Shown: positions 590 to 31,401, counted from the first letter of the stretch. The stretch is DNA of 32,000 nucleotides from Candidatus Scalindua sp. (GCA_031316235.1 JALDRA010000001.1:1020001-1052000), one strand, 5' to 3'. The notes: generated by a model from the sequence alone, not told the origin. A program made the numbers and translations.

Positions 590-696
590 AAACAGTCTGG
601 CTGGTTGCTGGTATCACCGGACAAAAAAACGCCGAGGACTTTACCTGCTCCGTTTTTTGCCGGATTTTACCCGAAATCCAGTATGAGATGAGTATA
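590..696 (+). repeat. Copy A of the ~140-bp structured intergenic repeat family (5' arm missing)
   Basis: It shares CTGGTTGCTGGTATC-CCGGACAAAAAAC-CCGAGGACTTTAC...CGGATTTTACCCGAAATCCAGTATGAGATGAGTATA with copies at 3663, 6314, 7426 and 31261. It starts about 25 nt after the fabG stop. Confidence 0.8.
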
Positions 697-2298: not shown

Positions 2299-3630
2299 AT
2301 GAAAACCTTTGCCAAACTTGGCTTATCTGAAAATGTTCTACGTGCCGTTAAGGATAAAGGCTACCAGGCACCTTCTCCCATTCAGGAACTCGCCATTCCT
2401 GCCATACTGACCGGCAACGATATACTGGCTGCGGCACAGACGGGTACGGGTAAAACAGCAGGTTTCACTCTACCGATGGTACAGATCCTTGATCAGGCAG
2501 TATCGACAAGAAACCATCCGATCCGGGCACTTGTTTTGACACCGACCCGGGAGCTGGCGGCGCAGGTCCAGGACAGCATAAAGACTTACGGCAAATACCT
2601 GAAACTCAAAAGCATGGTTGTTTTTGGTGGCGTGAATATCAAACCGCAGATTGATCAACTGAAAAAAGGTGTGGATATTCTGGTTGCCACACCTGGCAGA
2701 TTACTGGATCTCTGTAACCAGCGGGCATGCAGATTGAACGAGGTCAACATCCTTGTCCTCGATGAAGCAGACCGTATGCTGGACATGGGTTTTATTCATG
2801 ACATCCGCAGGATTATCAAACTTTTACCACCAAAACGTCAAAATCTACTGTTTTCAGCCACATTTTCAAAGGAAATTCGCACCTTGACACACGAATTTCT
2901 TGTCAAACCAATAACGATTGAAGTTACCCCTGAAAAAACTGCGGCACAGACCGTCTCCCAAAGAGCTTATCGATGTGATGCCAAGGCAAAGACCCGCCTT
3001 GCAATCCATCTGATTAAAGAAGGCAAATGGGAACAGGTGTTGATTTTCACACGAACCAAACATGGTGCCAATCGCCTGTGCAGTAAATTTTCAGAGGCAG
3101 GTATTCAATCAAGTACCATTCATGGCAACAAGACTCAGACCGCTCGCATCAAGGCTCTGGAGGATTTAAAAAGACGCAAGATTCGTGTACTTGTGGCTAC
3201 CGATATTGCCGCACGTGGTCTGGATATAGTCCAGTTACCGCATGTTGTCAATTATGAATTATCCAATGTTCCCGAAGATTATGTCCACCGCATTGGCAGG
3301 ACTGGTCGTGCCGGCATGGAAGGAGAGGCCATCTCCCTGGTTTGCAATGACGAACGCCCTTTTCTACGCAGTATCGAAAAACTTATTGGTCATTCGATTG
3401 ATCTATCGGATGTACCCGGCTTTGAGCCTTCCATCTGGCCAAAAAAAGCCCCCTCTGCAGGCGAAGTACAGAAAGCCGCTGCTGTACGTAAAGAAGCCGC
3501 GCGCCTGACACGTGGACCTCGCAGGCAACCTGCCTCAGCGAGAACTTCAACCAGAGAGCGAAATTCTGCGGGCAATAAACCCGGCAGGAGGCTCAATCAA
3601 AAAAGGAAACTTTCCGGCGAGAAAGGCTGA
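2299..3630 (+). CDS. rhlE: DEAD-box ATP-dependent RNA helicase (RhlE-like) with basic C-terminal tail
   Basis: 443 aa with Q-motif region GYQAPSPIQ, motif I AQTGTGKT, motif [13 protein letters not shown], and motif [12 protein letters not shown]. The C-terminus is Arg/Lys-rich. Confidence 0.95.
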
Positions 3631-3662: not shown

Positions 3663-3802
3663 TATACTGAAACCGCTTTGGTTTTTGATTTTTCTAAAAA
3701 CCAAAGCCTGGTTGCTGGTATCCCCTGACAAAAAACACCGAGGACTTTACTCTCTAAGTTTTTTCTTGGATTTTATCCGAAAACCATTATAAGATACGTA
3801 TA
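3663..3802 (+). repeat. Copy B of the structured intergenic repeat family (full length)
   Basis: TATAC...GTATA ends. Hairpin 1 is GCTTTGGTTTTT/AAAAACCAAAGC, followed by the central CCGAGGACTTTAC box and hairpin 2 TTGGAT-TTT-ATCCGA. It lies 32 nt after the helicase stop. Confidence 0.85.
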
Positions 3803-3897
3803 GAATCATTTTGAAGCCTTAAAGCCTTTTTTTTAAATGATCCGTCAAGGCCTCCAGATAACAATCCGCACCAGAAACAGGCAGAAAACAACACGAT

Positions 3898-4452: not shown

Positions 4453-4563
4453 TATACTAAAATCGATTTGGTTTTCGGTTTTCTGGAAACCAAATCATGG
4501 TGAAGGTATACTCGCTCCATTTTATCTCGAATTTTATTCGAAAACCATTATGAGATGAGTATA
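4453..4563 (+). repeat. Copy C of the structured repeat family (central ~30 bp deleted)
   Basis: TATACTAAAATCGATTTGGTTTTCGGTTTTCTGGAAACCAAATC...TCGAATTTTATTCGAAAACCATTATGAGATGAGTATA. It lacks the CCCCGGACAAAAAAC-CCGAGGACTTTA core. Confidence 0.8.
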
Positions 4564-4686
4564 CGATGAACATATATTGAAGGAATATGAAAATTAGTTT
4601 TAGCTTTTTTATGCAATGTTACTCATAGAACCCACTACCAGTCTGCCACCGTCCGGTTGTTTTCTATAATCAGCGTTTTATCTGTA

Positions 4687-5160
4687 TTAATGCTGCAGCT
4701 TATTATCCCAATCTTGTTTATCTTCCCCGTCCGCCCCTGCCACCACTATATCCCCCTTTACCACCACCATATCCCCTTTTTTGCTGCCGCTGTATCCACC
4801 CTTGCCTCCACCACCACCATATCCCCCTTTGCCGCCACTGTATCCACCCTTACCTCCTCCTCCGCCATATCCCCCTTTACCGCCGCTGAATCCTCCGGTA
4901 CCACCTCCAAAATTTCCGGTGCGAGGACGAGCTTCATTCACGTTAAGCGATCTACCCTTTAATTCCTTACCATTCAATCCATCAATTGCTGCCTGTCCCT
5001 CAGCTTTTGCTGGCATCTCGACGAATGCAAACCCTTTAGGCTGACCACTAAATTTGTCTTTTATGATATTGACGGATTCAACCTTGCCAAAAGCTTCACA
5101 AGCAAGCCGCAAATCCTCTTCGGTAGTCTCGTAAGACAAATTTCCCACATAAATATTCAT
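4687..5160 (-). CDS. Glycine-rich RRM RNA-binding protein (C-terminal tail probably frame-shifted)
   Basis: RNP-2 IYVGNL and RNP-1 KGFAFVEM, then GGKGGYGGGGGKGGYSG repeats. After the A6G4 run (4773-4782 on the plus strand) the frame gives an atypical tail, GDMVVVKGDIVV.... The +1 frame continues GGYGGGKGGYSGGRGGRGR and stops at 4718-4720. Confidence 0.9.
   Translation of the reverse strand: MNIYVGNLSYETTEEDLRLACEAFGKVESVNIIKDKFSGQPKGFAFVEMPAKAEGQAAIDGLNGKELKGRSLNVNEARPRTGNFGGGTGGFSGGKGGYGGGGGKGGYSGGKGGYGGGGGKGGYSGSKKGDMVVVKGDIVVAGADGEDKQDWDNKLQH
4790..4885. repeat. 2 x 48-bp tandem repeat inside the Gly-rich tail coding region
   Basis: CTGTATCCACCCTTGCCTCCACCACCACCATATCCCCCTTTGCCGCCA is followed by a near-identical unit. 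Each unit encodes a GGKGGYGGGGGKGGYS block on the minus strand. Confidence 0.8.
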
Positions 5161-5931: not shown

Positions 5932-6132
5932 TTATATTTTGACAACATTTGAGGCCTTACTGCCCTTTTGGCCCTGTTCGACTTCAAACTCCACCCGGTC
6001 ACCTTCTGAAAGGCTTTTAAAACCATCAGACTGGATTGCGGTATGGTGAACAAAGACATCTTCTCCATTCTCCGGAGTAATAAAACCAAACCCCTTTGAG
6101 TCGCTAAACCACTTTACTGTTCCATTCTGCAT
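5932..6132 (-). CDS. csp: Cold-shock protein, CspA family
   Basis: 66 aa with [15 protein letters not shown] (RNP-1-like) and VFVHHTAI (RNP-2-like). AAGGGGGT lies 10 nt upstream of the ATG. Confidence 0.95.
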
Positions 6133-6206: not shown

Positions 6207-6313
6207 ATATAAGTATATATCAAACGATACAACTACCAACATAGTCAAAGATTATCACACATGAATCATTAATGCAAGAGAAAATAATATTTTGTCAAGC
6301 AAAAAGAGAAATG

Positions 6314-6425
6314 TATACTCACCTCATAATGGTTTTCGGATGAAATCCGAGAAAAAACGGAGCGAGTAAAGTCCTCGGTGCCTTTTGTCCGGGGATACCT
6401 GCAACCAAGATTTGGTTTTAGTATA
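6314..6425 (-). repeat. Copy D of the structured repeat family (hairpin 1 deleted)
   Basis: The reverse complement reads TATACTAAAACCAAATCTTGGTTGCAGGTATCCCCGGACAAAAGGCACCGAGGACTTTACTCGCTC...CTCGGATTTCATCCGAAAACCATTATGAGGTGAGTATA. Confidence 0.8.
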
Positions 6426-7357: not shown

Positions 7358-7425
7358 TCTTCCTTCCCCTGAGAGTAACTACGCTATAAAACTGTTTGCT
7401 TTGTTTTAACAGGATTGTAACGTTT

Positions 7426-7562
7426 TATACTCATCTTACAATGGTTTTCGGATAAAATCCGAGATAAAATTGAGTGAGTAAAGTCCTCGGTGCCTGGTCC
7501 GGGGATACCTTCACCAAGATTTGGTTGCCGGTAAAACCGAAAACCAAATCGGTTTTAGTATA
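7426..7562 (-). repeat. Copy E of the structured repeat family (full length)
   Basis: The reverse complement reads TATACTAAAACCGATTTGGTTTTCGGTTTTACCGGCAACCAAATCTTGGTGAAGGTATCCCCGGACCAGGCACCGAGGACTTTACTCACTCAATTTTATCTCGGATTTTATCCGAAAACCATTGTAAGATGAGTATA. The listed ORF 7474-7692 is just its translation. Confidence 0.85.
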
Positions 7563-7838
7563 TAAAAGCCCTGATCATTTTAAGAAAATCAGACATGCCA
7601 TCCCACTGATGCTTTTAAGAAATATGCTGCTTATAACCTTAGAGATATGTATACGTACTGAGGGAGTAGCAAAGATATCGATAACCAGATAAGTATGGAC
7701 GTGCAAACCGCAGTTACTGAATACTAACATATTGAAACCATTGCTGCAATGCTATATTTGCTCTTTCAAGAAATTAAAAATAGAGGACTCTTTGGTGTAT
7801 TGCCTGTGCAGACAATGTCAAGACCTTCAGTTAACAAT

Positions 7839-8342
7839 TCACTCCGGCTCTTCCTTTAATGCGGATTCACTTCGTAAACTCTGGATAAACAAGATCAGTT
7901 TATCCATCTCATCCCTTCCTATCTCCTCCTTGAATGACGGCATCGTGTTGTACCTGCCGAAATACTTCTCCTGCCCGGCATCTTCTATCATACCCCTTAA
8001 CCATTCATCTGACGCAAAGCCGTCCAGGGTAGGCGCAAATTTTCCCCCTTCCCCCTTATACGTATGGCAGTTGTAACACCCCTCCTGCTCCAGAATCGTC
8101 TCTCCTATCTCCCTCAATATCGGATCCACCGCCGTTTCGGGCTCTGACTGCGCCAGCAGAAAGTCTATCAGATAGGACAAATCTTCTTCCCCCATGACGC
8201 TTTCCGGCATCTCCCGGAAATGGGTATTTCCATAATATCTGACCGCATTCGGGTTCCGGAAGAAACCCCTCAACCATGATCGCGAATTATACCCCGTCAT
8301 ATCAGGGGCTGAATTACCCCCTCCTCCCGGTAACCGTGACAC
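7839..8342 (-). CDS. c-type cytochrome domain (second haem site), C-terminal fragment of a frame-broken cytochrome b / dihaem c fusion
   Basis: It contains CYNCH. Its N-terminal GGGGNSAPDMTGY continues the upstream frame (...CITCHGYREEG) if one G is added to the G5 run at 8317-8321. Confidence 0.7.
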   Translation of the reverse strand: MSRLPGGGGNSAPDMTGYNSRSWLRGFFRNPNAVRYYGNTHFREMPESVMGEEDLSYLIDFLLAQSEPETAVDPILREIGETILEQEGCYNCHTYKGEGGKFAPTLDGFASDEWLRGMIEDAGQEKYFGRYNTMPSFKEEIGRDEMDKLILFIQSLRSESALKEEPE

Positions 8343-8583
8343 GTTATACAGTGCTCACGGAACACCCCCTCGCCCACATACAACGGGTCGTTCGTAAACA
8401 CCGATGCTCCGCCCTGGGGGAATTCCAAGTACCGCCAACTCGATCGCCCTGTCCGCCATCACTTCAGACTCCTCCTTCTGCGCTAATAACCGCTCATCCC
8501 GCGAATCACTCACCATTGACATGATCGTCAGGCAGACCACACCGCCATCGCCGCCACGAACCCCCCGATAAAGGGTAACCGTT
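8343..8583 (-). pseudogene. Frame-disrupted middle segment of the cytochrome b / dihaem c fusion (linker TM helix + first CxxCH)
   Basis: Three different frames carry sensible pieces: ESRSPVKRLPFIGGFVAAMAV (TM-like), LTIMSMVSDSRDERLLAQKEESEVMADRAIELAVLGIP, and GGASVFTNDPLYVGEGVFREHCITCHGY (CITCH at 8336-8350). The frame changes lie at or near the runs at 8602-8606 and 8416-8420, plus one more near 8530-8550. Confidence 0.6.
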
Positions 8584-9036
8584 TTACCGGTGAGCGGCTC
8601 TCCCCCTGTCAAGAAATGGTATTGCAAGCATTAACAGCGCTGCAATGGTCGGAAGGATAATGGCGCCGACAACCTCCATATCGGCTTCAAAATATTTTAA
8701 CAGTTGAAACAGGAAGAGGAAATACCACTCGGGGCGCGCCATATACTGCGAACTCGGATCCGCCGGAGACTGTAACTCTGCTCCGTGCCGGTACCAGACG
8801 ACTGCCGCCATGATGGCAAATACAACCACGGCTGCCACCACATCCTTGAATATCTGGTCCGGCCAAAAGGGCTGTGTCTTCCTCTTGAGCTCTGACTCAT
8901 CCGGCTTCCAGTGCGGAGTCACCCCGTGTCTTCTGAATAAATAGAGGTGGATGGCCATAAACGTCATCAGGCCGGCAGGAAGAAAGAAAACGTGAAAACT
9001 ATAAAACCGTGTCAGCGTCAGGTTGCCATAATCATT
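8584..9036 (-). CDS. Cytochrome b C-terminal part (subunit-IV-like), fragment
   Basis: The frame reads NDYGNLTLTRFYSFHVFFLPAGLMTFMAIHLYLFRRHGV...PEWYFLFLFQ (Qo-site PEWY)...LAIPFLDRG. It is contiguous with the upstream fragment except for a 1-nt frame change at the C5 run 9037-9041. Confidence 0.75.
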   Translation of the reverse strand, partial: NDYGNLTLTRFYSFHVFFLPAGLMTFMAIHLYLFRRHGVTPHWKPDESELKRKTQPFWPDQIFKDVVAAVVVFAIMAAVVWYRHGAELQSPADPSSQYMARPEWYFLFLFQLLKYFEADMEVVGAIILPTIAALLMLAIPFLDRGRAAHR

Positions 9037-9538
9037 CCCCCTGGACCACTCCCTTTACAAAGTCTCCAAGCTCGGGGATCAGCCCGAGGATGCTCGTCGC
9101 CACCTGCGTAGCCCAGTACCCCTTCTGGTCCCACGGAAGCAGGTAACCGGTAAGTCCGAAGGCAAGGATGATAAAGAGCATAAAGACCCCGGATATCCAA
9201 TTTAACTCACGAGGCTTCTTGTAGGCCCCGAAGATGACCGTTTGCGTGATATGGAGTATCGCAAGCACCATCATCGCGCTGGAACCTACGTTATGCATCC
9301 CCCGCACAAACCACCCGGACAGGGTTTGTTCCTGGATATAATGGACGCTCCCCCACGCATCCGTCGCTGATGCGGAGTATCCTGTCGACAGGATTACGCC
9401 TGAGACAATCTGCATCATGAAGACGATTACCAGGGCACTGCCGAAAACATACGACCACTTCGCACCCCCTTCTACGGGCTCATCCAGAAACTTCTTCACA
9501 AGATCTTTCAGGCCTGTTCTCTCTTCCAACCACTTCAT
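9032..9538 (-). CDS. Cytochrome b N-terminal part (b6-like), fragment
   Basis: 168 aa. Helix-B haem ligands have H-x13-H spacing (GMHNVGSSAMMVLAILH). The LPWDQKGYWAT motif is present. It ends at a premature TGA created at the homopolymer 9037-9041. Confidence 0.8.
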   Translation of the reverse strand: MKWLEERTGLKDLVKKFLDEPVEGGAKWSYVFGSALVIVFMMQIVSGVILSTGYSASATDAWGSVHYIQEQTLSGWFVRGMHNVGSSAMMVLAILHITQTVIFGAYKKPRELNWISGVFMLFIILAFGLTGYLLPWDQKGYWATQVATSILGLIPELGDFVKGVVQGE

Positions 9539-9589
9539 AATATAATGGATCCCGCAATAAGGTGATATGTTCTGCAGATGCAGATATTT

Positions 9590-10144
9590 TCAAGCAGGTA
9601 TTTTTTTTGCAATACCCAGTTTCATCTTCTGATAACGGACAAACAGTTTCCCCTGCTTAATATCTGTTTCAAGGGTATCCATTCTGCGCGGAGATGGCCC
9701 CGAGATAATCTCGCCCTTGATATCAAAATAACTATCGTGGCAGGGACAGACAAATCTCCCCGAATCCTTATCCCAGTCTATCCCGCAACCGAGGTGAGGA
9801 CATATTACCGAAAAGGCCGTAACTGTTTCATCCTCTCCTCGAACCAGCCAGACTGCCCCAATTACCGTTTCCGGGTATTTGGTCCATGCATCCCTGCGCG
9901 AATCCCTGACCGCCACTTTCCTGGGCACGTTGATCTGGCACCCCCGTATGTCTCCAACCTCCACCAGACCCGATGAACTAATCACCGTCTTCTTCAGTGC
10001 GGGACTTATAAAGGCCCGTATGAGCGGTATGCTGTACGCAATACCGATCAGCGACGCAAGAAAGACAGAACAGACCTTGAGAAAGGCCCGCCGGCCGCTT
10101 CCACTCCCGTTTAACTCTTCCTTCCTGCCAGATTCCTCTTTCAT
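9590..10144 (-). CDS. Rieske [2Fe-2S] protein of a cytochrome bc-type complex
   Basis: 184 aa with a twin-arginine signal (SGRRAFLK), then a TM helix. Cluster-binding boxes are CPHLGC and CPCHDS. Confidence 0.9.
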   Translation of the reverse strand: MKEESGRKEELNGSGSGRRAFLKVCSVFLASLIGIAYSIPLIRAFISPALKKTVISSSGLVEVGDIRGCQINVPRKVAVRDSRRDAWTKYPETVIGAVWLVRGEDETVTAFSVICPHLGCGIDWDKDSGRFVCPCHDSYFDIKGEIISGPSPRRMDTLETDIKQGKLFVRYQKMKLGIAKKIPA

Positions 10145-10243
10145 ACTTCAAACCCCCTGCAAGTCAGTGCTTCCCCCGGAAAAATAACTGCACTCTTGTC
10201 AATTGGAAATATACCGTTCAAACTCACGATTTCCGTTTAACCG

Positions 10244-10534
10244 CTATTTAATCACCTTCAGCGAATTGGTATACTCGCCTACTTTCCAGAAATCGTACGA
10301 CTCGTACTTGATCCCCGCCTTATCTTCCAGCGTCTTTAAACGTCTCAGCTTACTGGCTTCGGATTTTATCCGTGCCAGCGATTGATCCTGCTTGAAGGCC
10401 CCCAGCTCGTATGTCTGGAAGTTTGGAGACATATGAAAGGCTGCTTTGTAGACTGTCGTTCCATGGTAGACGAGCATGTCAAAGAATTCCCGCTCTATCG
10501 CGGTAACATTGTACATACGCCCCCCAGGTTCCAC
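10244..10534 (-). CDS. C-terminal fragment of the octahaem HAO-like protein (frame-shifted)
   Basis: RMYNVTAIEREFFDMLVYHGTTVYKAAFH...IKSEASKLRRLKTLEDKAGIKYESYDFWKVGEYT is colinear with the C-terminus of the paralogue at 14262-15842 (RFYNVSDIERMAIEMIVYQVTAVYKAAFH...IKSEASKLRRISTIEKEVGIEHKAYDFWKHGEYT). Confidence 0.8.
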   Translation of the reverse strand: MEPGGRMYNVTAIEREFFDMLVYHGTTVYKAAFHMSPNFQTYELGAFKQDQSLARIKSEASKLRRLKTLEDKAGIKYESYDFWKVGEYTNSLKVIK

Positions 10535-11586
10535 TTGTGCCCCTGGTCAAGGTGCGGCGCAAGATCCTTGGGCATCGCGTCAAGAAGACCCTCTTCATGC
10601 AGATCTTCAATAACAGCCCTCGCCTCTCTTACTTTTGTATGGCTCACTTTTACCGTCTCGTCAGCGCCTCGTAAATATGCGGCCGCAAACCGGGCTGAAT
10701 GACAGTCATTACAGATATTCGTCCACGCTTTCCTTTTCTCTGCAAAATCTTCGGCCCCACGATCAACTTCTTCAACCCCCATATGGGAGTACACCGCATT
10801 TTCAACGGCATTATGTGTCCCATTATACATGTGGCAGTAAGCGCACGTCGGCGCACGGTAGTTACCCACCTTCAGCGGTTTGTCCCAATCCCACCTGTCT
10901 CCGTCAATCGCCGTAATAACTCCGTGTGCCGATGTGTTATAACACTCGGTATCACGATGGTCAGGGCCATTATGGCAGTAGGAACAGGCCTCTGGACGCC
11001 TCGCTTCGGCTGCCTTGAAGCGGTGTCTGAAATGGCAGGAATCACATTTGTTTTCAATCGAATGGCACTGTGCACAGCCGGCGACCTCTGGTTGAGGCTT
11101 GCTGATCTGCCACTCCGATTCAACTACGTCCGGATGAAATGCCCTGGCATGTGAAGGATGACCCGTTTCCCTCTCAGATTTAAAATCTTCAACTTGCTCA
11201 GGGTGGCATTTCGCGCAGATGTCCGGGGTTGGCATCTGGATCTTCTGATGATCAGAGCCATGGCATTTATCACAGGTAACATCTGCTGCGCTATGGGCAC
11301 TCTCTTTCCAGTCAATCGCAATCCTCGGTGTAGTCAGGGAATGACAATTAACACATTTCTCCCCTTCAAAGACACCTTCTATTTTGTTGTCAGGCTCAAA
11401 ATAGTGCCCCGGATCCCACCAGCGGAACATCTCAATCGGTTTCCAGTGTTTGCCCCATTTCCCTTCACCTTTTGTCAACTTTCCAAGTAATCCTTCCGCT
11501 TGAAGAGAGACAGGACAGAAAAACTGGCAGGAAGTCATCATGCAGATAAAAAAGAACAAAAATATTTTCTTTACAGGTGAATTCAT
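10495..11586 (-). CDS. Octahaem hydroxylamine-oxidoreductase-like cytochrome c, N-terminal major fragment (frame-shifted at 10520-10525)
   Basis: Eight CxxCH motifs: CVNCH, CDKCH, CAKCH, CAQCH, CDSCH, CSYCH, CAYCH, CNDCH. The likely true start is ATG 11586, with GGGGAGGG 6 nt upstream and signal peptide MNSPVKKIFLFFFICMM.... Adding one G to the G6 run restores ...HKWNLGGRMYNVTAIE.... Confidence 0.85.
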   Translation of the reverse strand: MNSPVKKIFLFFFICMMTSCQFFCPVSLQAEGLLGKLTKGEGKWGKHWKPIEMFRWWDPGHYFEPDNKIEGVFEGEKCVNCHSLTTPRIAIDWKESAHSAADVTCDKCHGSDHQKIQMPTPDICAKCHPEQVEDFKSERETGHPSHARAFHPDVVESEWQISKPQPEVAGCAQCHSIENKCDSCHFRHRFKAAEARRPEACSYCHNGPDHRDTECYNTSAHGVITAIDGDRWDWDKPLKVGNYRAPTCAYCHMYNGTHNAVENAVYSHMGVEEVDRGAEDFAEKRKAWTNICNDCHSARFAAAYLRGADETVKVSHTKVREARAVIEDLHEEGLLDAMPKDLAPHLDQGHKWNLGGVCTMLPR

Positions 11587-14261: not shown

Positions 14262-15842
14262 TCAATGCGCTGGTTCATCAAAGCAAGGATGATCTCCATG
14301 CCTACACTCACTCTTAGGAAGAACGTCACCTTCTTTTCTCTTCCAACCAGTCAGCAAGTCAGTGTACTCACCATGTTTCCAGAAATCATAAGCCTTATGC
14401 TCTATACCAACCTCTTTCTCGATGGTTGATATCCTTCTGAGCTTAGAAGCCTCTGATTTAATCTCAATGAGTTTTCTATCCATTGGGAACGCACCTGCGT
14501 TATAAGAAACATCATCAATTGCAAAATGGAATGCAGCCTTATAAACAGCAGTTACCTGATAAACAATCATCTCAATTGCCATTCTCTCAATGTCCGACAC
14601 ATTATAGAACCTTGGTGAACCACCCGGTAACAAACTGAGTGTATGCCCACCGGTCCAGTCAGGTGCCAAATCAGCTGGCATTGGATCAAGCAATCCTTCA
14701 AGATACAAGCCTACAATGATGTTAACAGCTTCACGCCACTTAGTAAAACTGATATGAATCTGTTCGTCAGCAGCACTTAATTGCTCTTCAGCAAAACGTG
14801 GAGAGTGACACCCTTGACATCTCTTTATCCAGGCGTCTCTCTTAGATTTATATCTCGGAGCACCTTTATCTACCTGGAACATACCCATGTGATTATACAC
14901 AGTGGAAACAGCCTGGGTATTGTGATTACCCTCTTCACCCATGTGACAATATGCACAGGTAGGAACACGGTAATTTTTCGGAGTCATCTTCTGTTCCCAA
15001 TCCCATGTATCACCTTCCATCATCAGAATTTTACCATGATATGAGTTGTAATAAAACTCATATTCAGCATGGTCTACACCCATATGGCAAACACCACATG
15101 TTTCAGGCTTCCTGGCTTCTGACTGTTTGAACTGGTGCCTTGTGTGACATCCATCACATCTGTTTGATACAATACCGTGACACTGTGCACAGCTGGCAAC
15201 CTCTTCACCAGGTTTTCCAATCTGCCATGCAAACTCATTTACCTCAATATGCCAAGCATGAGCATGTGAACCCAAGCCACCGGTAATATGATCAGCTCTC
15301 TGCTGTACATGACATTTTCCACAGACACCATGATCAGGCATAACTAATTGCTGATGATTATTTCCATGACAGGCATCACAACCAACAACCTGCTCTTTAT
15401 CCATGTCTGAAGTCTTTCCACCTTTGAAATGCTTACTTGCTTTCCAATCAACTACTATCCTAGGAGTTTGAATAGTGTGACACAATACACACTCTTCCGT
15501 CTTAAACTCACCCTCAACCTTTTGAGTTGAAACATAGTAATGGGCTGGGTCGTAGTACATTGCAGTTACGGGTAAGAAATAGAATATATTTTTGAACTTA
15601 CCTTCACCTGGCATCACTTCATCAGGTCCAGTGTATTTCGCGGTAAGACCGAAAACATAAACTTCACCGCTGTCATCTGGCCCGACTGCCTGGCCAAAAA
15701 TGGAAGATGCAACATCCTGAAATGTTGGTGCAGCTTCATCTGCGTTTGCTTTTGAACTGAATCCGGCCGTTACAACCGTGCAGGTGGCAACTAAAGCAAA
15801 AATGGCCGTACATATTGCGTATCTCCGTGCAAATTGAATCAT
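14262..15842 (-). CDS. Octahaem hydroxylamine-oxidoreductase-like cytochrome c (HAO family paralogue)
   Basis: 526 aa with signal peptide MIQFARRYAICTAIFALVATCTVVTAGFSSKANA. Eight canonical CxxCH motifs: CVLCH, CDACH, CGKCH, CAQCH, CDGCH, CGVCH, CAYCH, CQGCH. AAAGGAGAA lies 7 nt upstream of the ATG. Confidence 0.9.
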   Translation of the reverse strand: MIQFARRYAICTAIFALVATCTVVTAGFSSKANADEAAPTFQDVASSIFGQAVGPDDSGEVYVFGLTAKYTGPDEVMPGEGKFKNIFYFLPVTAMYYDPAHYYVSTQKVEGEFKTEECVLCHTIQTPRIVVDWKASKHFKGGKTSDMDKEQVVGCDACHGNNHQQLVMPDHGVCGKCHVQQRADHITGGLGSHAHAWHIEVNEFAWQIGKPGEEVASCAQCHGIVSNRCDGCHTRHQFKQSEARKPETCGVCHMGVDHAEYEFYYNSYHGKILMMEGDTWDWEQKMTPKNYRVPTCAYCHMGEEGNHNTQAVSTVYNHMGMFQVDKGAPRYKSKRDAWIKRCQGCHSPRFAEEQLSAADEQIHISFTKWREAVNIIVGLYLEGLLDPMPADLAPDWTGGHTLSLLPGGSPRFYNVSDIERMAIEMIVYQVTAVYKAAFHFAIDDVSYNAGAFPMDRKLIEIKSEASKLRRISTIEKEVGIEHKAYDFWKHGEYTDLLTGWKRKEGDVLPKSECRHGDHPCFDEPAH

Positions 15843-16179: not shown

Positions 16180-18597
16180 TTATCTCCTTGAATATCCAGG
16201 ATATGGATCTGGTCCCTGAATATTATCCCACTGTGCACCCAAATCTACCCACTCAACAAACAGGTATCTTTCTTCAGGAGTCAGGATTTTGTTATGCATT
16301 ACCCTGCCTTCTAGTGGGAAGGTGTTATCACTTGTTGCAAACTGTGATAATGGTTCCTCATAGAGCCTCCAGATAAGAGGGCTATTGATAGCAGCACTTG
16401 GATTCACGTATCTACCACCAATGTTCTTATCCTTACCCTGCAGAGGTGCCAGCAAGCTGTTGTAAGAACTGCTGAAGGCAGCAATCCCATCAACAGAAAC
16501 CAGCTTTGTGCTACCGGCGAGATTAGGTGCCTGCCCAGAGCTATGGCAGCTGGCACATTTTGCATCAATTAATGGCTGAATGTCTCTTCTGAAATCGACT
16601 GTTCTGAGTTTGTCAATATTCAAACCTTCAACCTTCTGTGATGTCGTACCAGAAGCACCACCGTAGTAAACGTCAGCTGGTACAACAACGTCTTCACCAT
16701 GCTTTACCCCGGCGTATTTACCATTCTTATCAATTCTGACATTCGCCCACATAAATGGCGAATCGTAATGGCTTAAATCACTATACCACCAGTTGTAAAG
16801 AGCTTTCGAATGGATATTCTTATACCCCCTCTTGTCATATGAACCCCAGTGGCATCCAGTACAGATTCTCCCACCATAAGGCCTTACATATGCCCATGAA
16901 AGCTGCGTCTGAACTGCCATGCCATTCTCATCAAGGATCTGAGCACAGTATGGCTCATCTCCGGGATGTGAGCTTACAACAGAACCATCATCTTCAACGT
17001 ACTGATAACCAAACATACGTCTCTGAGTAAACATGGTACCTGAGTTACTACTTGTTCTTTCACCACCAAGCAGGTGCCTACCTGCACCAACGATAAACCT
17101 GGAAGAATCCGGTTCTTTTGTCTCGATAGCGTTCAGCGTTCGAATCGCTTTCACATCACCATGCTTCATCTCCTTGGCCCTCTGATGCGGATATGGACCA
17201 ATTGGAAGATTAGTCAAGGTAGTATCAAAACAGATAGTAGTACTCCAGGAGTGCGGATATCCTTCGACGTTCACCTGATCAAAAGGCTGGTACGTCACCG
17301 TGGTAACACCAAATTCTTTACCAGCAGTAAAAGAGTTAATCCATCTTGGTTTATAACGAGGATATACTGGCTGTGGCTGATGATCGTTCCACTCAGGATC
17401 ATCATAAACCTTCTCACCGACGGTTCCCTTGCTTGCATCAAACCAAAACAGGCCGAAATCCTGTCTCTCTGAAGATGAAACCATCAACCTTCCATCTGGC
17501 ACAGGGAATGGACTCCTGTAAAGCCTCCCATCATTATTAAGTCTTGATTGAGTCTTGGCATGAGGAGTCGTCCAGCTAACCCTTGCAAGATTTCCAACAC
17601 CTGAATTGTAATCCAAGGCCTCAATATAATACAGATATCCGTCCACAGCTTCCCTTGCCTGAATTTTAGCAGTGTGTGGCTGCTCAGAACACTCATTACC
17701 ATAAATATGCCTTGGATATGATCCATCCCAGTTATCAACTATGAGACAGACACTTCCTTTACCCCCAGCCCGTGGCCCATTTGCCTGTGTACTGCTGAAC
17801 ATAATATTTCCGTCACGAGTTAAAGCTGGATCAAAATCAGAACTTACATTATAGGTAATCCTGTCAGCAACAGAATTTGTGCTCGGCATATCGATACCCA
17901 TAAGTTTGTGACCACAGATTCTGTCCATCATGTTTCCACCCTGCGGATCAAGCCTGTAGAGGCTGTACGAGTAATTATTATAATACTCATCCATAGCGTC
18001 TGCAGGTGAGTATGTGATGATCAAGAAGCCAGTTTTCTCAACTTCTCCTCTCACTTTCCAGTCACCTTCAAAATACCTGTCTCGTGAGATAACCCTGCCT
18101 TTACCAGACTCTATGGCACCGGCCGCATAATAGATCGGGCTCCTTGCTGTACCAGGCAAATCAGTCAACTGCCTTACACCGGAACCATCAATATTCATTT
18201 CCCAGATTTGACATCCACCACCGTTTTTATGAACACCGGCAAATGCAACTCTTGAGCAATCCCAATTTAGGCAGGGATCAAAAGCGCTCTGAAAATCATT
18301 TGTTAAAACCTGCACACTTCTTGTTTTCATATTATATGAAACTATCCTGCTATTATTGGAAACATAGTTCGGATATTGATGATACGGATCACCAGCACTT
18401 GTAGGCTTCGACTGAGTGAAGATAACAGAGTCAATATTCCCCTGTATCTCCTTTGACATACCCCAATAGTCACCCCAAATAGCCTTACCCGGCTGGTGAC
18501 CACCTACCATTACCTGTGCCTGGCAAGTTGAACCTAAAAGTCCACTTATTGCCACAGCACCAGCTAACGCCATTGTCGCAAAAAATCCCTTTTTCAT
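16180..18597 (-). CDS. hzsA: Hydrazine synthase alpha subunit
   Basis: 805 aa from ATG 18597 (GGAAAGGAGA upstream), with signal peptide MKKGFFATMALAGAVAISGLLGSTCQAQV. A long haem-free N-terminal region is followed by two CxxCH motifs (CTGCH, CASCH) in the C-terminal third. It is the last gene after hzsB-hzsC. Size, haem layout and synteny match my recollection of kuste2861. Confidence 0.9.
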   Translation of the reverse strand: MKKGFFATMALAGAVAISGLLGSTCQAQVMVGGHQPGKAIWGDYWGMSKEIQGNIDSVIFTQSKPTSAGDPYHQYPNYVSNNSRIVSYNMKTRSVQVLTNDFQSAFDPCLNWDCSRVAFAGVHKNGGGCQIWEMNIDGSGVRQLTDLPGTARSPIYYAAGAIESGKGRVISRDRYFEGDWKVRGEVEKTGFLIITYSPADAMDEYYNNYSYSLYRLDPQGGNMMDRICGHKLMGIDMPSTNSVADRITYNVSSDFDPALTRDGNIMFSSTQANGPRAGGKGSVCLIVDNWDGSYPRHIYGNECSEQPHTAKIQAREAVDGYLYYIEALDYNSGVGNLARVSWTTPHAKTQSRLNNDGRLYRSPFPVPDGRLMVSSSERQDFGLFWFDASKGTVGEKVYDDPEWNDHQPQPVYPRYKPRWINSFTAGKEFGVTTVTYQPFDQVNVEGYPHSWSTTICFDTTLTNLPIGPYPHQRAKEMKHGDVKAIRTLNAIETKEPDSSRFIVGAGRHLLGGERTSSNSGTMFTQRRMFGYQYVEDDGSVVSSHPGDEPYCAQILDENGMAVQTQLSWAYVRPYGGRICTGCHWGSYDKRGYKNIHSKALYNWWYSDLSHYDSPFMWANVRIDKNGKYAGVKHGEDVVVPADVYYGGASGTTSQKVEGLNIDKLRTVDFRRDIQPLIDAKCASCHSSGQAPNLAGSTKLVSVDGIAAFSSSYNSLLAPLQGKDKNIGGRYVNPSAAINSPLIWRLYEEPLSQFATSDNTFPLEGRVMHNKILTPEERYLFVEWVDLGAQWDNIQGPDPYPGYSRR

Positions 18598-18710
18598 AAG
18601 TTGGGAGTCTCCTTTCCTCTCGTATATAAAATTACACAATTTAATAATTTCTCAATTATTTCTGAAATCCATAGCCCCTATTTTGGAGGCTATCTGATCA
18701 GTAAAACACC

Positions 18711-21832: not shown

Positions 21833-23224
21833 TTAATTGCTACCATATTTTTCCAACCGATACCTCAGTGTCCCACGTGTCAAACCCAGCATTTTCGCAG
21901 CTTTTGTTTTATTATTATTACTTTTTTTCAGGGCCTGTAATACAATCGTTTTCTCAACTTCTTCAAGGCAAATACCCTCCGGAGGTATTTCAAAATCAAT
22001 CGAAACCTCCTTTTTTCCCTTATCACCACACTTACCATTCGAATTACCCTGCTTCGTAAGGTTTAAAGGCAGATGCTCTTCATGTATCGTATCCCCCTTA
22101 CACAAAATCACCGCCCTCTCTATACAATTCTTTAACTCCCTAATGTTACCTTCCCAGACATTTGAGATGAGCAGCTTTTCAGCATTCCTTGAGATTTTCA
22201 TGAGGCATTTACCCATTTTGACTGAGTAGCGCTCGATGAAGGTATTTACCAGAGAAATAATATCCTCTGATCTTTCACGAAGAGGTGGTATTTGGATTGG
22301 AAATACGTTGATTCGGTAAAAGAGGTCCTCTCTGAAGTCCCCTTCTTTTACAAGCTGTCCAAGGTCTTTATTGCTTGCACAGATAATTCTCACATCTACC
22401 TTCACTGTTTCTGAACCCCCGAGCCTTTCCAGCTCCCTTTCTTCAACGACCCTCAATACCTTTGCCTGGATAACAGGATTCATCTCAGAAATTTCATCTA
22501 GAAAAAGAGTCCCCCCATTAGCTAATTCAAATCGACCTTTTTTGCTCTTTTCAGCACCAGTAAAAGCCCCTTTTTCATAACCAAACAATTCACTCTCTAA
22601 CAGATTTTCCGGCAGGGCTGCGCAATTTATCGTAACCAACGGTCCACTCTTTCGAAGACTATTGAAATGAATAGCCTTGGCAACCAACTCCTTCCCGGTT
22701 CCACTTTCACCATAAATCGAAACAGTAGAGTCTGTCCTTGATACATCGCCTGCCAACAAAAGAACTTCAAGCATTTTGGGAGAGTTGGTAATGATAGTCC
22801 CAAAATTGTAATGCGACTCTAATTCGTTGCGCAGGTATCTATTTTCAATTGTAAGAGATCTAATCTTAATAGCCTTTTTAATCGCAACAGCCAGAGCATC
22901 CCCCTCAAAAGGTCTGGGGATATAGTCAAATGCCCCCTCCTTCATCGCCTTAACCGCTATTTCCACGGAGTCATCTCCGGTAATAATAATGACCGGCAGT
23001 TCCGGATCCTTCGATTTTAAACGCCTCAAGAATTCAAGACGACCAATCCTGGGTGACCTCAGATCGGTTATAACCAAATGCACTCTTTCGCAGTTGATAA
23101 AATCTAATATTGACAATTCACTCTGCACTTTAACAAGTTCTACACCTGCCACTTCTTCAAGAATAACCCCAATATTTCGGATCATCCGCTCTTCATCATC
23201 AGCTACCAGTACCCTACTTTTCAT
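21833..23224 (-). CDS. Sigma54-dependent response regulator (NtrC family enhancer-binding protein)
   Basis: 463 aa. The receiver domain has VLVADDEE...VITDL. The AAA+ domain has Walker A GESGTGKE and the sigma54-contact loop GAFTGA. The C-terminal Fis-type HTH is KTKAAKMLGLTRGTLRYRLEKYG. Confidence 0.95.
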   Translation of the reverse strand: MKSRVLVADDEERMIRNIGVILEEVAGVELVKVQSELSILDFINCERVHLVITDLRSPRIGRLEFLRRLKSKDPELPVIIITGDDSVEIAVKAMKEGAFDYIPRPFEGDALAVAIKKAIKIRSLTIENRYLRNELESHYNFGTIITNSPKMLEVLLLAGDVSRTDSTVSIYGESGTGKELVAKAIHFNSLRKSGPLVTINCAALPENLLESELFGYEKGAFTGAEKSKKGRFELANGGTLFLDEISEMNPVIQAKVLRVVEERELERLGGSETVKVDVRIICASNKDLGQLVKEGDFREDLFYRINVFPIQIPPLRERSEDIISLVNTFIERYSVKMGKCLMKISRNAEKLLISNVWEGNIRELKNCIERAVILCKGDTIHEEHLPLNLTKQGNSNGKCGDKGKKEVSIDFEIPPEGICLEEVEKTIVLQALKKSNNNKTKAAKMLGLTRGTLRYRLEKYGSN

Positions 23225-31238: not shown

Positions 31239-31260
31239 ACTGACAGCTCCATTTCCCTTG

Positions 31261-31401
31261 TATACTAAAATCGATCTGGTTTTCGGTTTTACCGGAAACC
31301 AGATCCTGGTGAAGGTATCCCCGGACAAAAAACTCTGAGGACTTTACTCGCTCAAATTTATCTCGGATTTTAACCGAAATCCAGTATGAGATGAGTTTAT
31401 A
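31261..31401 (+). repeat. Copy G of the structured repeat family (full length)
   Basis: TATACTAAAATCGATCTGGTTTTCGGTTTTACCGGAAACCAGATCCTGGTGAAGGTATCCCCGGACAAAAAACTCTGAGGACTTTACTCGCTCAAATTTATCTCGGATTTTAACCGAAATCCAGTATGAGATGAGTTTATA. It sits 7 nt from the greA stop. Confidence 0.85.

Follow-up and report, generated by a model that had tools for sequence, protein, structure and literature searches.

Six frame breaks in a Scalindua HAO-like/Rieske/cytochrome b module are very probably assembly errors in G/C runs, not signs of gene decay

One question raised by the deposited genome of a marine anaerobic ammonium-oxidizing (anammox) bacterium, of the genus Candidatus Scalindua, is whether a respiratory module with six breaks in its reading frames is damaged in the organism or only in the assembly. 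The module is coded on the minus strand of a window of 32,000 nucleotides (nt), the whole stretch of DNA analysed here (GCA_031316235.1 JALDRA010000001.1:1020001-1052000). It consists of an octahaem HAO-like gene, an intact Rieske gene and a gene that fuses cytochrome b to a dihaem cytochrome c; this reading, made in an earlier prediction from the sequence, is borne out by open reading frames (ORFs), motifs and Pfam matches. The original prediction set two explanations side by side: homopolymer indel errors of the assembly, or a decaying pseudogene cluster. The answer given here is that the six breaks are very probably errors of the assembly consensus, with G/C runs undercalled by 1-2 nt, and that the organism has three intact genes; the breaks exist in the deposited record, but do not belong to the organism itself.

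One break lies in the HAO-like gene and five in the cytochrome b/c gene, and all six fall in G/C runs (Table 1). The five runs singled out in advance are all present where they had been placed; a further break, suspected near 8530-8550, is real, and can be located at a GG doublet (break 4). As deposited, the HAO-like gene is split into pieces of 363 and 90-96 amino acids (aa), and the cytochrome b/c gene into six frame segments, whose path in three-frame translation is 2, 0, 2, 1, 2, 1. The seven-G run at break 1 restores ...HKWNLGGRMYNVTAIEREFF..., matching all orthologues; at break 2 all relatives read VVQGGNDYGN; at break 4 they keep the Gly (AAMAGVV or AALAGIV); and at break 5 they read GIPPQGG or GIPPSGG. 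The rejoined junction peptides proposed earlier were right, except that those at the two 2-nt deficits were each one residue short (the true sequences are VVQGGNDYGN and GIPPQGG). Once repaired, the cytochrome b/c product is colinear from end to end with uninterrupted Scalindua relatives of 562-568 aa, the closest of which are 89% and 86% identical.

The weight of the argument is carried by independent contigs. Two Logan assembly contigs, L087 (SRR28338161, 3,479 bp) and L088 (SRR28338162, 2,473 bp), were reached via the 90% cluster of the window's Rieske protein, the representative of which comes from these two public runs. L087 matches the window from 11332 to 7862 with 99.65% identity, the 10 differences being 6 indels and 4 substitutions. 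The indels number exactly six, each consists of bases missing from the window, and they fall at the six break sites; L088 independently agrees with L087 at both of the break sites that it covers. The HAO-like, Rieske and cytochrome b/c genes are uninterrupted as far as these contigs reach (561 aa of cytochrome b/c in L087), and the window patched with L087 yields clean ORFs of 447, 184 and 568 aa, equal to the orthologue lengths in Scalindua sp. AMX11, in GCA_024449855 and in other Scalindua. Comparison with orthologous loci, proposed at the outset as a check, thus finds the genes intact in orthologues and Logan contigs alike; the in-frame runs and the intact ORFs of orthologue length support the first of the two explanations.

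The discrepancy is also local. Contigs from the same runs cover the flanks: L090 corresponds to window 18733-11392 and L091 to window 7453-6370, and both are 100.000% identical to it (over 7,342 and 1,084 bp); therefore, the Logan data come from the same population as the assembly. Over 3,479 bp of the module there are 10 differences, over the 8,426 bp of flanking sequence none (Fisher test, p = 4.5e-6; for indels alone, p = 6e-4), so that the clustering of breaks, earlier called notable, holds up statistically.

With L087 taken as truth, miscalls follow the true length of the run: 3/3 for G/C7, 2/3 for G/C6, 0/11 for G/C5, 0/20 for G/C4 and 1/57 for G/C3. That is, true G/C runs of at least 6 were miscalled in five of six cases, and every indel is a deletion in the window; run-length dependence of this kind is as in a sequencing artefact. 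Even the substitutions partly share the pattern: in two of the four, the border between adjacent homopolymers has moved (at 10013, C2T3 stands in place of C1T4; at 8051, G5A2 in place of G4A3). The shift at 8051 turns Lys into Glu, where the two closest relatives have Lys or Arg.

The genes themselves argue in the same direction. No in-frame stop codon occurs in the module genes; all haem, Rieske and PEWY motifs are kept, and so are all residues invariant across eight relatives. The ratio of nonsynonymous to synonymous substitution rates (dN/dS) of the three genes, measured against AMX11 and GCA_024449855, is 0.05-0.14, a value that averages the whole divergence, so that a recent relaxation could escape it. 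Six true frameshifts would be expected to come with far more than four substitutions. The second explanation, a decaying cluster, is accordingly disfavored: the disabling changes are absent from the independent contigs, dN/dS is low and the genes are colinear with their orthologues.

Table 1. Positions of the module, its frame breaks and its neighbors in the window
Feature	Position	Strand	Details
Break 1	10520-10525	-	window G6; G7 in L087 and L088; 1-nt undercall
Break 2	9037-9041	-	window G5; G7 in L087 and L088; 2-nt undercall
Break 3	8602-8606	-	window G5; G6 in L087
Break 4	8542-8543	-	window GG; GGG in L087; sole break in a short run
Break 5	8416-8420	-	window C5; C7 in L087; 2-nt undercall
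Break 6	8317-8321	-	window G5; G6 in L087
HAO-like octahaem cytochrome c gene	10244-11586	-	true product 447 aa; PF13447; patched ORF
Rieske 2Fe-2S subunit	9590-10144	-	184 aa; intact ORF; PF00355
Cytochrome b - transmembrane linker - dihaem cytochrome c fusion	7839-9538	-	true product 568 aa
GC-rich island	7839-11586	-	GC 0.49-0.53, GC3 about 0.50-0.55; flanking genes GC 0.37-0.44, GC3 0.29-0.39
Error-rich segment, 3.47 kb	7862-11332	-	exactly spanned by L087
hzsA	16180-18639	-	window ORF
HAO/HDH-type octahaem gene	14262-15842	-	526 aa; window ORF
trpB and trpA	between the 526-aa octahaem gene and the HAO-like gene	-	
112-aa gene	3' of the cytochrome b/c gene	-	followed by a metallophosphoesterase gene on the opposite strand

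Why, then, do the errors gather in one module? Part of the answer is composition. The module is GC-rich, also at third codon positions (GC3), and its coding strand is G-rich (G-skewed); of the 48 G/C runs of at least 5 in the window, 18 fall within the module, which makes up 12% of the length, so that such runs are about 4.5 times as dense there as elsewhere. In the validated flanks, no G/C run exceeds 5. Because G/C runs of at least 6 are nearly confined to the GC-rich module, the clustering is largely explained. Two intact genes had been cited as controls in which similar runs survive: the C5 in hzsA (at about 17762) turns out to be uninformative, as true 5-nt runs were never miscalled (0/11), while the C6 near 22511 is a valid control, though a single case.

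The module of AMX11 is also GC-enriched, more weakly (GC3 0.46-0.54 versus 0.32-0.40; L001 7330-11707). Divergence from AMX11 is alike inside and outside the module, which is therefore an old compositional island rather than a recent transfer. A chimeric assembly, raised by the jump in GC, was ruled out: gene order is kept in AMX11 and in GCA_024449855 (L089), and the enrichment is found in AMX11 likewise.

Composition may not be the whole answer. Five differences in the module lie outside long runs (the G3 read as G2 and the four substitutions), against none in the 8.4 kb of flanks (p = 0.002). Moreover, the module exists in a second version. The window proteins (version A) are on a single contig of 4,149,782 bp, a size that by itself suggests a long-read metagenome assembly; version B is annotated on a contig of the same size, as the proteins P0144, P0125, P0139 and P0267 (NCBI records MDR4505686/88 and MEZ6156708/10/11; locus tag MRK01_13015 for P0144). 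P0144, a fragment of the HAO-like protein, differs from the window in about 20% of its first 85 residues and is identical in the rest, including the G6 break. P0125, the Rieske protein, has Ser11 and an AAA-to-AA frameshift; the window has Leu11 (position 10113), where L087 and L088 also have Ser, and this difference may be a residual error or may be specific to the copy. P0139, the N-terminal fragment of cytochrome b, has G6 rather than G5 at 9037 and ends in ...VVQGGMIMAT. In P0267, the cytochrome c end, the residue at 8051 is Lys where the window has Glu, and the sequence ends in DLVLPE instead of ALKEEPE.

The two versions are nearly identical inside one segment and diverge exactly at its edges, at 11332, where L087 and L088 both start, and at 7862, where L087 ends; what differs is the 5' end of the HAO-like gene (its first 85 codons) and the 3' end of the cytochrome b/c gene (its last 7 codons). 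At 11282-11288, L087 carries the window type and L088 the other. A de Bruijn contig that ends at both edges of a shared segment is the pattern expected of a repeat; the 3.47 kb segment probably occurs as a repeat in two copies, unless two haplotypes share it. A search with the B-type HAO-like protein found no separate cluster with genomic context, and cluster look-ups with the partial proteins of the Logan contigs gave no match.

A repeat would provide a mechanism. With the segment twice in one 4.15 Mb contig, or shared by two haplotypes assembled together, the placement of short reads over these 3.47 kb would be ambiguous; polishing would then fail to correct the raw long-read consensus, and each copy would retain miscalls of its own. 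The window resembles known cases of long-read (nanopore-type) homopolymer undercalls that survive short-read polishing in repeats: there are deletions only, the runs affected are mostly of at least 6, and run boundaries are shifted; fragmented ORFs lie within one 4.15 Mb contig of a metagenome-assembled genome, while unique flanks are perfect. It differs from an unpolished nanopore consensus in that A/T runs of up to 9 nt are all correct here, which is unusual for such a consensus. A polishing failure caused by a repeat is, on balance, the most likely cause of the errors; the Logan runs are presumed to be accurate short reads.

Several points weigh against this account and should be set out together. 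The two verifiable G/C6 runs outside the module (1050-1055 and 22511-22516) stand in intact ORFs, and the assembly is right at all 17 A/T runs of 6-9 nt within validated sequence; a uniform, genome-wide error process thus does not fully explain the pattern, and the failure of polishing over a repeat is what we infer in its place. The placement of A and B on the same contig follows only from the identical reported size. Four substitutions part the window from L087, so that the two are not strictly the same molecule; it is conceivable that the indels are true of the assembled strain, and that the Logan contigs stem from another strain that occurs alongside it and has the genes intact. One way to dispense with a repeat altogether is to suppose that true G/C runs of at least 6 are miscalled throughout the assembly by a bias of the technology: the errors are nearly all in true 6-7 nt runs, the module is rich in runs of at least 5, and the flanks, having no G/C run of 6 or more, cannot reveal an error of this type. 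This simpler supposition is rather doubtful as the sole cause, for the two checkable G/C6 runs elsewhere are in intact ORFs, the five differences away from long runs have no counterpart in the flanks, and it does not account for a second version with other errors, whose points of divergence are the ends of the error-rich segment.

Genuine pseudogenisation would require six slipped-strand deletions in the assembled strain, with the Logan contigs drawn from an intact sister strain. The breaks are, after all, present in the deposited sequence, and four substitutions do separate it from L087; the 544-aa multihaem gene that adjoins the module in AMX11 is also absent from the window. This last absence was ruled out as a sign of decay, as GCA_024449855 lacks the gene too, though its module is intact. 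Against such a history stand six frameshifts accompanied by only four substitutions (two of them boundary shifts) and by zero stop codons; the deletion-only, run-length-dependent character of the indels; dN/dS of 0.05-0.14; and the G6 of version B at a true G7 site, which looks like noise. As 8.4 kb of flanks are 100% identical, a separate strain would have to differ in the module only; altogether, the scenario is very improbable. Less probable still is that the poly-G/C tracts are contingency switches that turn the operon on and off, or that slippage during transcription or translation restores the frame across them, although all breaks lie in G/C runs, where slipped-strand mispairing occurs, and the module is unusually rich in them. 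Known phase-variable loci rely on one long tract; here six tracts would have to be 'off' together, among them two with a 2-nt deficit and one that is only 3 nt long. Two independent runs give in-frame lengths at the sites covered, and the tracts are not kept as runs in AMX11 or in L089, where module DNA is 74-84% identical to the window. Consensus errors in an intact module are thus far the better explanation.

The possible repeat has an implication of its own. Whether the segment exists in two copies, at least 99.8% identical, at two loci of one genome, kept alike by recent duplication or gene conversion and provided with different ends, is a matter on which the chances seem evenly poised. 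If it does, this lineage has doubled a bc1-type complex linked to a tyrosine-bearing, probably oxidising octahaem enzyme; to our knowledge, a doubled arrangement of this kind has not been described for the freshwater model anammox species. Brocadiaceae bacterium STL-AMX1 carries two tandem pairs of Rieske and cytochrome b/c genes (L015 6633-8853 and 9471-11695); compared with the AMX11 query (L001), their cytochrome b/c genes show 39% and 51% identity. Therefore, the simple complex does get duplicated in anammox bacteria.

What kind of complex do the repaired genes encode? The Rieske protein has a twin-arginine motif (SGRRAFLK) and the cluster boxes CPHLGC and CPCHDS; its gene is separated from the cytochrome b start by 51 nt. 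The cytochrome b/c product carries the PEWY motif of the Qo site and the haem c motifs CITCH and CYNCH, and PF00033, PF13631, PF00032, PF13442 and PF00034 all match the one 568-aa polypeptide. Three Rieske/cytochrome b complexes are described in Kuenenia. The simplest ('R/b-1', kuste3096-3097) has a Rieske protein and an unsplit cytochrome b fused to a dihaem c; another ('R/b-3', kuste4569-4574) has a b6-like cytochrome with a separate subunit-IV-like protein, a hexa-/octahaem c replacing cytochrome f, and an NAD(P) oxidoreductase (10.1101/2025.06.25.661457).

Judged by predicted architecture, the Rieske and cytochrome b/c pair is a simple bc1-type quinol:cytochrome c oxidoreductase of the kuste3096/3097 kind. 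As there, the Rieske gene is followed by one chain of unsplit cytochrome b with a C-terminal dihaem c, and no NAD(P) oxidoreductase subunit is present. The likeness is one of architecture: a Candidatus Kuenenia sp. protein of 630 aa (P0036), possibly kuste3097, shows 49% identity over its full length. The two differ in gene neighborhood, as the window lineage has an octahaem HAO-like gene immediately upstream, and AMX11 also a 544-aa multihaem gene downstream. The earlier assignment to the kuste4569-4574 type was wrong for the Rieske/cytochrome b part, as one chain of 568 aa here contains the whole of cytochrome b, with a dihaem c fused to it, where the other type has b6 and subunit IV apart. 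Neither the NAD(P) oxidoreductase nor the hexa- or octahaem c subunit of R/b-3 is found among the genes between trpA and the 112-aa gene, which are only the HAO-like, Rieske and cytochrome b/c genes; the genes listed at the AMX11 locus include the extra 544-aa multihaem gene and no oxidoreductase gene. What the window does share with kuste4569-4574 is the linkage of an HAO-family octahaem gene to a Rieske/cytochrome b complex in an anammox bacterium. Even there the octahaem proteins differ: that of kuste4569-4574 is HAOr-like, of a group described as lacking the cross-link, whereas the one in the window keeps the tyrosine, and its closest solved relative is the oxidising KsHOX.

The HAO-like protein is assigned to the HAO family of octahaem cytochromes c by its eight CxxCH motifs and its homology to solved HAO, HOX and HDH structures; it also has a Sec-type signal peptide, and its orthologues are 447-449 aa long. 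Against solved structures, the best match is 4n4j (KsHOX kustc1061; E = 2e-111), followed by 6hif (2.5e-92) and 4fas (1e-57). Tyr393 aligns with the cross-linking Tyr467 of Nitrosomonas europaea HAO (4fas), although an aligned tyrosine alone is not proof of a Tyr-haem P460 cross-link. The HAOr/kuste4574 group is described as devoid of the cross-link (PMC12485887; see also the title of PMC8042395); the retained tyrosine sets the HAO-like protein apart from that group.

The AMX11 orthologue of the HAO-like gene (L001 7330-8676) is an intact ORF, but the fourth haem motif of its product is gone (CAQCH to FALRN), and so are the Cys in TECYNT and the tyrosine aligned with the cross-link (QTYELG to QTNEFG). 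Identity between AMX11 and window proteins is only 68% for the HAO-like protein, as opposed to 83-86% for Rieske and cytochrome b/c. If any copy of the gene is degenerating or changing function, it is that of AMX11 rather than that of the window.

Full-length cytochrome b/c homologues, 48-52% identical and preceded by a Rieske gene, occur at Brocadia, Jettenia, Loosdrechtia and Anammoxibacter loci, and homologues of 39-46% identity are found in Myxococcota and other Planctomycetota among the matches listed. In the loci compared, neither an HAO-family gene nor the 544-aa multihaem gene stands beside the freshwater-anammox pairs. The HAO-like neighbor is present in only some Scalindua, being absent from three of the loci (L007, L009 and L010). 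A 544-aa multihaem gene (L001 11759-13393) directly after cytochrome b/c was seen in AMX11 only, among the loci examined; in the window (7358-7838) and in GCA_024449855, cytochrome b/c is directly followed by a gene of 112 or 114 aa. The multihaem partners of the bc1-type complex therefore vary between species.

From what is known of the family, menaquinol would be oxidised at the Qo site of the Rieske/cytochrome b core; the Rieske cluster would hand one electron on to the fused dihaem c, on the positive side, and the octahaem enzyme would exchange electrons with that c-type domain. The module is, in biological terms, ordinary: an R/b-1-type complex with an HAO-family neighbor specific to Scalindua, in which the possible duplication and the HOX-like neighbor are no more than modest leads.

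The errors have consequences for those who use the annotation. The public record splits the module into 'hypothetical protein', 'cytochrome c' and 'cytochrome b N-terminal domain-containing protein', to which version B adds 'Rieske 2Fe-2S domain-containing protein'; comparative studies could wrongly score this Scalindua as devoid of the simple bc1-type complex, or as a carrier of pseudogenes. The case also warns against reading decay into frameshifts that gather in a single operon, if nothing else nearby is GC-rich, rich in poly-G and possibly repeated.

Some features of the surroundings complete the description. On the minus strand, the order of genes is hzsA, the 526-aa octahaem gene, trpB, trpA, HAO-like, Rieske, cytochrome b/dihaem c and the 112-aa gene, and the order in Scalindua sp. 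AMX11 is identical. An Rfam search of the whole window gave no family above threshold, and a promoter and terminator scan found matches across the module no more numerous than in shuffles.

A conserved element of about 140 nt, in every case intergenic, occurs in six copies in the window (611-696, 3683-3805, 4467-4564 and 31258-31399 on the plus strand; 6313-6419 and 7423-7565 on the minus strand), and also in Scalindua sp. AMX11 (L001 20395-20591). It has inverted ends, TATACT...AGTATA, and internal hairpins such as TGGTTTTCGGTTTTACCGGAAACCA and TCGGATTTTATCCGA; it matches no Rfam family, and could be a repeat resembling a miniature inverted-repeat transposable element, or a shared regulatory or untranslated-region element. 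Immediately 3' of the cytochrome b/c gene, at the place that the extra multihaem gene takes in AMX11, there is one copy, and several copies adjoin cold-shock-type genes (CSD, RRM and DEAD-box helicase). Genes of this type in the window include those of a CSD protein (5932-6132), a DEAD-box helicase (2299-3630) and two RRM proteins, at 1530-1802 and at 4687-5160 (minus strand); the one at 4687-5160 has a long Gly-rich tail (GGYGGGGGKGGYSGGKGG repeats) that stems from tandem repeats of 21-27 nt and 48 nt.

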